DNA from: Escherichia phage CMSTMSU
Strand: one strand, 5' to 3'
DNA: 64,000 nt
Sequence record: MH494197.1
The translations under genes and the position numbers were made by a program. The notes beneath the pieces are model-generated. The model worked only from the letters and a program-made list of their open reading frames with translations, was not told where the DNA came from and ran no database searches. Position 1 is the first letter of the stretch, and every line of letters starts with the position of its first letter. This document shows, in pieces, positions 43,835 to 51,849 of this stretch.

Positions 43835-43997
43835 ATGTTCTCCTTAGTAAGTCATAGTATTATATCAGAGTTTCATTGCACTTACCAGCATGTTTTCATA
43901 ACTTCTGTGATGTAAATCATTTTATCTTTTAGTTCATAAGGGATGCAAATTTCACGGGCTTAACGTTGTGTTCTTTTGAAACTCATCCTCTTCGGAA

Positions 43998-44270
43998 TCA
44001 GCCGTAAAATGGATGCGTCACAAAGTTATCATCAACTGGACGATTATGTGGTTTCATTAATGCATCATGATTGACAAAATAATAAGCATCAATATCAGGA
44101 CGGAAATACAAACAATCAACCTTAATGCACGGGTGTAACCATAAGGACAAAGAATATGTTATTTGGTTACCAATTTGTCTTGGACCAGATGCAATTGTAT
44201 TGATGTTATTTTTATCTTGTACCATTTCATAAATGAAATCTATCATTTCACGTAGTTCAGATTCAGTCAT
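43998..44270 (-). CDS. hypothetical protein
   Basis: 90-aa ORF; AAGGAA RBS. Confidence 0.5.
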   Translation of the reverse strand: MTESELREMIDFIYEMVQDKNNINTIASGPRQIGNQITYSLSLWLHPCIKVDCLYFRPDIDAYYFVNHDALMKPHNRPVDDNFVTHPFYG

Positions 44271-44282
44271 TTTATTTCCTTA

Positions 44283-44307
44283 AAAAATACCCAGTACTAG
44301 ACTGGGT
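44283..44307 (-). terminator. rho-independent terminator
   Basis: hairpin TACCCAG-tctagta-CTGGGTA followed by TTTTTT on minus strand. Confidence 0.6.
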
Positions 44308-44486
44308 ATAAAGTAATGTTCAATCAGATTTCTTTTCGTAATCTGCAAAACAGTCAGGATTGTTGCACACAGTGAATCAACTGCTGCTGCGTTTTCATCA
44401 AGGGATTTCGCTAGTTCTTGAATCTCTTGAAGTTTTACTACTAAGTCAATTTTTGATTACTCATTACTTCTCCTATTGAATGTATT

Positions 44487-44792
44487 TTAGATGTTAATTT
44501 TGATACCAGATAGATCCAGTACTTTACGTATAGTAGGTTCTGGTTCAGGCTGAACAACCTCTTCAGGCTCTTGTACTGGAATCTTTGTGTTAATATTTAG
44601 ACCATCTTGAAGAATTTCAGGGATAATTCCATGCTGCACATCATTGTACATAGACACAACAGTTTCTGCACAAGATAACATTTCACGAACTTTAAACTGA
44701 TATCCTTGTGGTAAATCTTTGATGATTTCCATAACATCTAATAACTTCGTTTGTACATCAATAAGAATACTGTTTGATTTATCTGCGTCCAT
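44487..44792 (-). CDS. hypothetical protein
   Basis: 101-aa ORF. Confidence 0.5.
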   Translation of the reverse strand: MDADKSNSILIDVQTKLLDVMEIIKDLPQGYQFKVREMLSCAETVVSMYNDVQHGIIPEILQDGLNINTKIPVQEPEEVVQPEPEPTIRKVLDLSGIKINI

Positions 44793-50481: not shown

Positions 50482-50988
50482 TCAAACGAATTTCGATGAA
50501 TTCGTTTTCAGTTTCCATGATGAACCTAATTTCTTATTAAGTTCAGTTTTAACATCACTTTTAAATTTTCCCATAGTATTAGGAATAATTTGTTTGGTTA
50601 GTTTATCGTAACCACAATAAAACATAGGTTTCTCCCTTCGAGATATTAGCTGAACAAAATCCTTTGGATATGCAGGTATATTATGCATCACTTCATGAAT
50701 GCACTCAGTACTTGAATCTTGTACTTTGTACATTACATTAAGTTTACCTTTGAAAGTGCCAATCATATCAACAATAATACCTTTACCGGATTTAAGTAAA
50801 GTTCCATTCTTTGTATGAGAACAATAGAATACCTCATCACCAATATTAGGATAGTACAAATTAAATTCTAATTCTTCCTTTGATGACTGACGTTGAAATT
50901 TCATTACACGTTCAGTATAGGTGGGGTAGTTCTTCATGTTCAAAAGAATATCTCTCTTAGTAAGTGTGATATAACTGGCATAGTCCAT
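50482..50988 (-). CDS. hypothetical protein (168 aa)
   Basis: intact ORF; start overlaps methyltransferase C-terminus. Confidence 0.55.
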   Translation of the reverse strand: MDYASYITLTKRDILLNMKNYPTYTERVMKFQRQSSKEELEFNLYYPNIGDEVFYCSHTKNGTLLKSGKGIIVDMIGTFKGKLNVMYKVQDSSTECIHEVMHNIPAYPKDFVQLISRREKPMFYCGYDKLTKQIIPNTMGKFKSDVKTELNKKLGSSWKLKTNSSKFV

Positions 50989-51798
50989 CCATTCCCAAGC
51001 ATTTTGTATGCTTGTGTCTTACTAGACACTTTAAAGAAATCTACAGGAATACCCTGTAATTTACAACATTCTACTACACTTAAGTGTCTATAGTCAATAT
51101 TTCTTTTACCATTCTCCAATAGATATTGACGATTAATCGTTGGTCACGAAACACCAACTGTCGTCTTGATTTATTAAAGTACTGGTTACAATCACCACCC
51201 TTAAAATAGTTAGCATCTATACAGTACGAAGCGGTTCTGTCAGTGTACCAACCATCTTCAATGATATCTTGAAGTTTAGGGCATTTGATAATGCAGGTGG
51301 TATAAAAAGCTTATCAGTACTGCACCAGTAGTATCTCTGCCTGAAGTGAGGCGTATAATGCTGGGAATTTATCAGTACTGGTGTGATTCCTAAAATACTA
51401 TTAATGTATTCTTTGAAATCTTCCTTCATTTTAACATTCTCGAACAGAAATTGCAAGTTTGGATTTACACTTTTGATGTGCTCAAAAATATCAACCATAA
51501 CCAAAAATAACTGTCCACGTATATCATTCAAGCCACCTTGCTTACCAGCAACAGACCGAGCTTGACATGGGAATCCTCCCATGAGTAAATCTATCTTATC
51601 CCACTCAATATTCCATTCTTTCCACTTAGTCACATCACCTAACTGGATAATATCAGGAAAATTCTCGGAAGATTCAGCAATTGCGTACTTGTCAATTTCA
51701 GATGAGTAATATTTTTCAACTGGAATACCTGCATCTGCCAATGCCATATATCCAACGCTCATTCCATTAAAAGTGACAGTACTCTGATAGGTTTCATA
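50940..51798 (-). CDS. DNA (cytosine-5)-methyltransferase, frame-disrupted
   Basis: N-terminus MKPIRVLSLL (motif I region), GGFPCQ (motif IV) and ENV (motif VI) in ORF 51217..51762, C-terminus ...ECCKLQGIPVDFF...MLGNGWTMPVI (motifs IX/X) in a third frame. Confidence 0.65.
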
Positions 51799-51849
51799 TA
51801 AAATCCTTTTATATTGTTAAGGTACTATAATACATTATAGCATCTTATT

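Follow-up and report, generated by a model that had tools for sequence, protein, structure and literature searches.

Cytosine-5 (C5) DNA methyltransferases share an established family mechanism: the base is flipped out, a cysteine attacks C6 and a methyl group is transferred to C5. The phage gene that we analyse here belongs to this family and is already known, being annotated in about 30 related phages, with orthologues in ~30 phage genomes that are 80–99% identical. In fEgEco12, Ecwhy_1, 121Q and EC.P1, i.e. in all four of the relatives that we fetched, it is annotated as one uninterrupted 861-nt CDS that encodes 286 amino acids plus the stop codon; the proteins of fEgEco12 and 121Q differ at 12 of the 286 residues (~96% identity), and the PHROG family of the protein is phrog_116, ‘DNA methyltransferase’. 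As for Dnmt3, Jurkowski and Jeltsch (2011; PMC3227630) considered it to be probably derived from an unidentified bacterial C5 methyltransferase, and no prokaryotic or phage sister group of Dnmt3 is named in their study. Finally, Wick et al. (2019; PMC6591954) described how default-model ONT base-callers, Albacore included, go wrong: the consensus errors fall mainly at the Dcm motifs CCAGG and CCTGG and then at homopolymers.

The stretch of DNA analysed here – ‘the window’ – covers 64,000 nucleotides of Escherichia phage CMSTMSU (sequence record MH494197.1), and in it the methyltransferase gene is interrupted three times. We conclude, with a probability of about 95%, that the three breaks arose as consensus errors in a nanopore draft of 2018 that was left unpolished, and that the gene itself is intact and codes for an ordinary phage C5 methyltransferase. 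The initial annotation, which was made from the sequence, had recognised the C5 methyltransferase but left it open whether the breaks are real. We judge them to be errors because a one-directional pattern of homopolymer loss and CCWGG damage runs through the whole window, and because the record is documented as the product of an unpolished Albacore/Canu assembly.

The identity of the gene is well supported. The initial annotation had placed it at 50940–51798, strand unstated: the gene is real and lies on the minus strand, with the end coordinate off by one base, as the ATG begins at 51797. Translation of the three minus-strand frames over positions 50900–51830 bore out the description of methyltransferase motifs that follow each other in the expected order and yet are spread over three frames (Table 1). 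The assignment to the C5 DNA methyltransferases was also right, as judged by the PF00145 and TIGR00675 profiles and by the DNMT3-like sequence and fold described below. Pfam PF00145 matches the N-terminal piece of the window gene with an E-value of 1.1e-23 (84.6 bits) and the C-terminal piece with 9.6e-10 (38.8 bits; cut-off 22 bits), E-values that place the match well past chance for both pieces, and an intact orthologue scores 117.2 bits on TIGR00675 (cut-off 100.65). A megablast search against phage records yielded 35 matches, all of them to members of the 121Q/PBECO4 (Asteriusvirus) group, namely jumbo coliphages and Salmonella phages. Eight of these records, fEgEco12 and WPEC3 among them, reach at least 99% identity, and in them the 931 bases of the query correspond to 935 bases. 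The phage of the window is likewise a jumbo coliphage of the 121Q/PBECO4 type. The window gene is the orthologue of 121Q gp91 and fEgEco12 g455.

Table 1. Features of the methyltransferase locus in the 64-kb window (positions are those of the window; residue numbers are those of the 286-aa protein).
Feature	Position	Strand	Details
Cytosine-5 DNA methyltransferase gene	50940–51797	minus	858 nt in the window
Start codon ATG	51797–51795	minus	
Stop codon TGA	50942–50940	minus	
Frame piece MKPIRVLSL	51771–51797	minus	First frame
Frame piece FNGMSVGY...GGFPCQ...ENV...FRQRYYW...PPALSNA		minus	Second frame
Frame piece PKLQDIIEDGW...DANYFKGG...RRQLVFRD		minus	Third frame
Frame piece PTINRQYLLENGK...YRHLSVVECCKLQG...GNGW...REIFF	ends at TGA 50942–50940	minus	First frame again
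Break 1	51769–51772	minus	Plus-strand A4 (gene T4) versus 5 in relatives; splits MKPIRVLSL from FNGMSVGY (motif I)
Break 2	51279–51281	minus	Plus-strand G3 (gene C3) versus C4 in fEgEco12, Ecwhy_1 and EC.P1
Break 3	51142–51143	minus	Plus-strand G2 (gene C2) versus C3 in close relatives
Motif I, F-x-G SAM-binding loop, LSLFNGMSVG			Split by break 1 in the window; F10 and G12 invariant in 66 homologues
Motif IV, GGFPCQ	51562–51579 (PCQ 51562–51570)	minus	Predicted catalytic cysteine C78; P77 and C78 invariant in 66 homologues
Motif VI, Glu-Asn-Val (E120 N121 V122)	51433–51441	minus	Invariant in 66 homologues
Motif VIII, Arg-x-Arg (R153, R155)	51334–51342	minus	Invariant in 66 homologues
Motif X, Gly-Asn-Gly-Trp (GNGW)	50985–50996	minus	G269-N270 invariant in 66 homologues
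Corrupted Dcm site in the gene	51556–51560		CCGAG in the window versus CCAGG in relatives
D63N substitution	51612	minus	Private to the window; either a real variant or a further error
Extra homopolymer loss	51807–51810	minus	Gene-strand A4 versus A5 in relatives; within the ribosome-binding region AAAAGGA, immediately 5′ of the start codon
Truncated methyltransferase ORF	51217–51762	minus	176-aa product
Orthologue of 121Q gp92	50482–50988	minus	Downstream of the methyltransferase gene; 168-aa ORF in the window

For the gp92-type gene downstream, two alternative starts are annotated among the relatives: in fEgEco12, Ecwhy_1 and EC.P1 it overlaps the 3′ end of the methyltransferase gene by 49 nt, in 121Q the overlap amounts to 4 nt and involves the stop codon only, and the ORF in the window uses the overlapping start. 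Scanning for promoters and terminators around the methyltransferase gene gave counts no higher than chance. The annotations of the fetched relatives show no restriction endonuclease next to the gene, and the enzyme therefore looks like an orphan phage methylase.

Alignment with the relatives locates exactly three breaks within the gene, each of them a homopolymer that is one base shorter in the window. The initial annotation had predicted that an extra T in the T-run would join MKPIRVLSL to FNGMSVGY, and this holds: all relatives have T5 at break 1 where the window has T4. Break 2 parts ...PPALSNA from PKLQDIIEDGW; 121Q is here of equal length to the relatives with C4, carrying an A at that position. 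Break 3 parts ...RRQLVFRD from PTINRQYLLENGK. Restoring the three bases yields a protein of 286 amino acids that differs from its fEgEco12 counterpart only at two positions, D63N and W81R. The second of these substitutions is the product of a damaged Dcm site: CCAGG at 51556–51560 is read as CCGAG, and therefore the GGFPCQAWS of motif IV turns into GGFPCQARS.

The same kind of defect is found wherever one looks in the window. We compared the whole 64 kb with fEgEco12 and WPEC3, counting indels over ~61 kb, and detected 285 deletions against 9–11 insertions in the window (~28 to 1). The loss depends steeply on run length: the fraction of reference runs that are shortened in the window is 1.3% for runs of three bases, 5% for four, 34–35% for five, 83–84% for six, 88–92% for seven and 100% for eight, and only 15 A/T runs of six are present as compared to 84–86 in the relatives. 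Among the reference ORFs that are at least 100 aa long and fully aligned, 73 of 83 have a disrupted frame in the window, and the median number of deletion events per ORF is two; with the same defect in so many ORFs, the methyltransferase gene is therefore typical of the window and nothing special. The control comparison of fEgEco12, the genome of which was Illumina-sequenced, with WPEC3 yielded just ~29 small indels; insertions and deletions both occur, and most of them pair up and compensate each other within divergent patches. The window also carries 498 private substitutions. We set these aside as evidence of error, since their clustering and their excess of transitions look like real strain divergence.

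A second footprint concerns the Dcm motif. Not one CCWGG site of the relatives survives unchanged in the window (34 of 34 are altered as compared to fEgEco12, 39 of 39 as compared to WPEC3). The window is devoid of the motif, of which shuffling predicts 34.4 ± 6.0 copies. Most of the deletions that fall outside homopolymers hit CCWGG, chiefly at the central base, with CC-GG, CC--G and C--GG as typical forms (examples of altered positions are 5731, 7802, 13550, 50021, 52891 and 58972). The sites collapse mostly to CCGG or to CCG/CGG: CCGG is found 37 times in the window as compared to ~17–21 times in the relatives, and the window therefore contains spurious HpaII/MspI sites. One-base neighbours of CCWGG are altered at 3–16%, and CCGG itself at 0–5%. 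In an unbiased scan of 4-, 5- and 6-mers just CCWGG and words overlapping it stood out (p of 1e-64 to 1e-78). Other candidate hot-spots were examined and rejected: GATC is altered at 7–11% of sites with zero deletions; CCGG, GGCC, CGCG, GGWCC, TGCA and GCAC are all near background; and for the EcoKI site AAC(N6)GTGC, altered at 1–2 of 4–5 sites, a T-run and a substitution explain the changes.

Both footprints are what the documented origin of the record would produce. The CMSTMSU announcement (PMC6256653; MH494197, reads SRP158495) describes a MinION Mk1b with FLO-MIN106 (R9.4), Albacore 2.1.3 and Canu, and a polishing step is unreported. Base-calling of the Albacore generation systematically makes homopolymers too short and miscalls CCWGG sites bearing 5-methylcytosine (5mC). 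The window combines an excess of deletions, a loss that rises with run length, errors at Dcm sites and a defect that extends beyond the methyltransferase gene with an unpolished nanopore source. For the individual breaks, we infer from the relatives and from the base rates that each is probably an error. Breaks 2 and 3, which lie in short runs (four and three bases) with window-wide error rates of just 5% and 1.3%, are each, taken alone, less typical of error than break 1, and a private real mutation in CMSTMSU is formally possible, because the strain, at ~98% identity to its relatives, is identical to none of them.

The low artefact rates of the short runs that hold two of the three breaks, and the fact that all three stand in the window sequence as given, would fit a true pseudogene, in which the CMSTMSU lineage lost the methyltransferase by three independent one-base deletions. 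We nevertheless regard such a loss as very improbable: like deletions break 73 of the 83 ORFs, and, taken literally, nearly all genes of a plaque-forming phage would be dead. The preponderance of deletions over insertions by ~28 to 1, with its scaling with run length, and the unpolished Albacore/Canu source both speak against decay, and, the breaks aside, the gene shows 99% identity to orthologues that are intact and is otherwise free of decay. Finally, the interruptions could be functional: slippage at the T and C runs could make the methyltransferase phase-variable, or its expression could be controlled by programmed ribosomal frameshifting. Break 1 does lie in a T-run early in the gene, where such a run is typically located in phase-variable methyltransferases. 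However, in the relatives one continuous frame codes for the protein, each break position having an extra base, and neither a conserved frame discontinuity nor a long slippery tract is present among the sequences fetched. Known contingency tracts are far longer than these runs of just 3–5 bases, the frame would have to shift three times in succession, and equal breaks occur all over the window. Regulated frameshifting or slippage is hardly credible on this evidence, the intact orthologues effectively refuting it. Consensus error in an unpolished nanopore draft thus remains our reading of all three breaks.

The CCWGG footprint has a positive by-product: its pattern implies that the virion DNA used for sequencing bore 5mC at Dcm sites, most of the molecules carrying it at every CCWGG. 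Nearly all E. coli have Dcm, which suffices to methylate phage DNA, and the methylation more likely came from the host than from the phage enzyme: the phage protein does not resemble Dcm, which makes the host enzyme the simpler explanation. Were the compact DNMT3-like phage enzyme itself to methylate CCWGG, fully modifying the virion DNA, the 100% error footprint would record, by accident, the activity of the same gene that seems to be disrupted. We consider this unlikely, even though all 34–39 sites are miscalled in the consensus, no other motif shows systematic errors that would mark a different phage target, and CCWGG is undepleted (34–39 sites against ~34 expected), as if protected. On the Dcm/M.EcoRII profile NF007772 the phage protein scores 20.9 bits against a cut-off of 710, with the match confined to motifs IV–VI, so it is no orthologue of these enzymes, and its target-recognition region is short and DNMT3-like. 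Digestion patterns provide a further argument. Dcm methylation prevents cutting by SexAI (ACCWGGT), and CpG methylation prevents cutting by SmaI, NruI and ClaI. According to the published fEgEco12 description, SexAI, SmaI, NruI and ClaI digests of fEgEco12 DNA gave the predicted patterns. The enzyme of fEgEco12 differs from that of the window at no more than two residues, and the digests argue against blanket methylation of CCWGG or of CpG by a near-identical enzyme. Host Dcm thus remains the preferred source of the CCWGG methylation.

Other words deserve a comment of their own. GCGC is absent from the window (0 in positions 1–64000 against 35.7 ± 5.8 expected), from the same 66-kb region of the Illumina-sequenced fEgEco12 (0 against 27 expected under a Markov model), from the sampled stretch of WPEC3 and from an unrelated 50-kb stretch of phage 121Q (0 against 21 expected). 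The absence of GCGC from all sampled stretches of the phage group did not arise from the sequencing and suggests strong selection against a nuclease that cuts GCGC, whether encoded by the host or by the phage. In the papers on this phage group that were searched we found mention neither of GCGC avoidance nor of methylation of the group, and the absence of GCGC from the sampled stretches deserves a separate look. Furthermore, GATC occurs at about half the expected frequency (113 sites for 236 expected in fEgEco12, 76 for 180 in 121Q), CGCG is scarce in fEgEco12 (10 against 25 expected), CCGG is moderately low (21 against 32 expected in fEgEco12, 16 against 29 in 121Q), and GGCC and CCWGG are near expectation.

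The C5 enzyme is also not the only annotated methyltransferase of these phages. In 121Q, gp417 (43986–44507 of the sampled stretch, outside the region that corresponds to the window), a protein of ~174 aa annotated as a DNA methyltransferase, adjoins a ribonucleotide reductase gene, and fEgEco12 Gp162 is a further small protein with the same annotation. The Sharanji paper additionally names an N6-adenine methyltransferase in the phage group; both in this paper and in a jumbo-phage review the methyltransferases are given by annotation alone. DNA modification in these phages may involve several enzymes.

The biological weight of the interrupted gene is small: the gene is already annotated in the relatives, and its disruptions belong to a known class of artefact. 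The practical value of the analysis lies in the warning. With about one false deletion per 215 bp in MH494197, the apparent pseudogenes, the frameshifts, the missing CCWGG and the extra CCGG in the window are to be disregarded. False truncated proteins derived from this record are now in public protein databases. One example is the 176-aa ‘modification methylase [Escherichia phage CMSTMSU]’ of GenBank, which is the product of the truncated ORF in Table 1: it starts at Met6, carries N63 and the corrupted QARS, and ends with a 21-residue out-of-frame tail, ALNFKISLKMVGTLTEPLRTV.

What would the repaired gene do? Since all motifs of the family are present and are invariant across 66 homologues (Table 1), its product is most likely an active C5 methyltransferase that uses SAM. 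The reading frame would be open in the actual phage and would code for a compact enzyme of 286 amino acids. By analogy with the family mechanism, the enzyme would flip out its target cytosine, Cys78 of the PCQ motif would attack C6 of this base, and the methyl group would pass from SAM to C5. An anti-restriction role, put forward in the initial annotation, is plausible in view of what is generally known of phage orphan methyltransferases.

How, then, does the locus compare with described systems? The closest are the Asteriusvirus orthologues (121Q gp91, AIT13988; fEgEco12 g455, XBS49537; Ecwhy_1, QAY00350; and WPEC3 CDS255), which have position, neighbours and the length of 286 aa in common. 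The catalytic motifs are all identical, and the repaired window protein matches that of fEgEco12 at 284 of 286 residues; what sets the window gene apart is confined to three lost bases and one damaged CCWGG site, all of which we ascribe to sequencing error. As an assembly, the window resembles the Albacore-era nanopore assemblies described earlier (PMC6591954) in its errors at Dcm motifs and homopolymers, its deletion bias and its base-caller family (Albacore 2.x). It differs in having had no polishing and coverage from short reads, and hence in its higher error rate: ~1 deletion per 215 bp, with 100% of the Dcm sites affected.

Among C5 enzymes, E. coli Dcm and M.EcoRII share the chemistry, and CCWGG is the very motif the methylation of which is implied by the errors in the window, but the phage protein has 286 aa as compared to the 472 positions of the Dcm profile NF007772. 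M.HhaI and M.HaeIII belong to the same superfamily (PF00145/TIGR00675) with the same motif order, I-IV-VI-VIII-TRD-IX-X, but have a larger target-recognition domain (TRD) than the phage enzyme, and their similarity to it, with E-values of 1e-15 to 1e-17, the latter for M.HhaI, lies mostly in the N-terminal half, and for M.HhaI in that half only. The best matches by sequence among solved structures are the catalytic domains of mammalian DNMT3B, DNMT3A and DNMT3C, which align over the full length (residues 2–282) with an E-value of ~1e-23. An AlphaFold model of the 121Q orthologue (pLDDT 93.4, pTM 0.90), used as a Foldseek query against the PDB, gave DNMT3A, DNMT3B or DNMT3C for all of the best 50 matches, with TM-scores of 0.75–0.81 at ~27% identity. 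As judged by sequence and by this model, no bacterial enzyme of solved structure appears as close to the phage methyltransferase as the catalytic domain of mammalian DNMT3A/3B/3C. The likeness extends to the size of ~285 aa, to motif I, which follows the pattern PIRVLSLF(D/N)G, and to the target-recognition region, which is short in both. At the same time, the phage protein is only ~27% identical to DNMT3, has neither the PWWP nor the ADD regulatory domain and no DNMT3L partner, and the SmaI, NruI and ClaI digests reported for fEgEco12 DNA argue against its having the CpG specificity of DNMT3. It is this DNMT3-like character of a compact phage enzyme that is worth separate attention.
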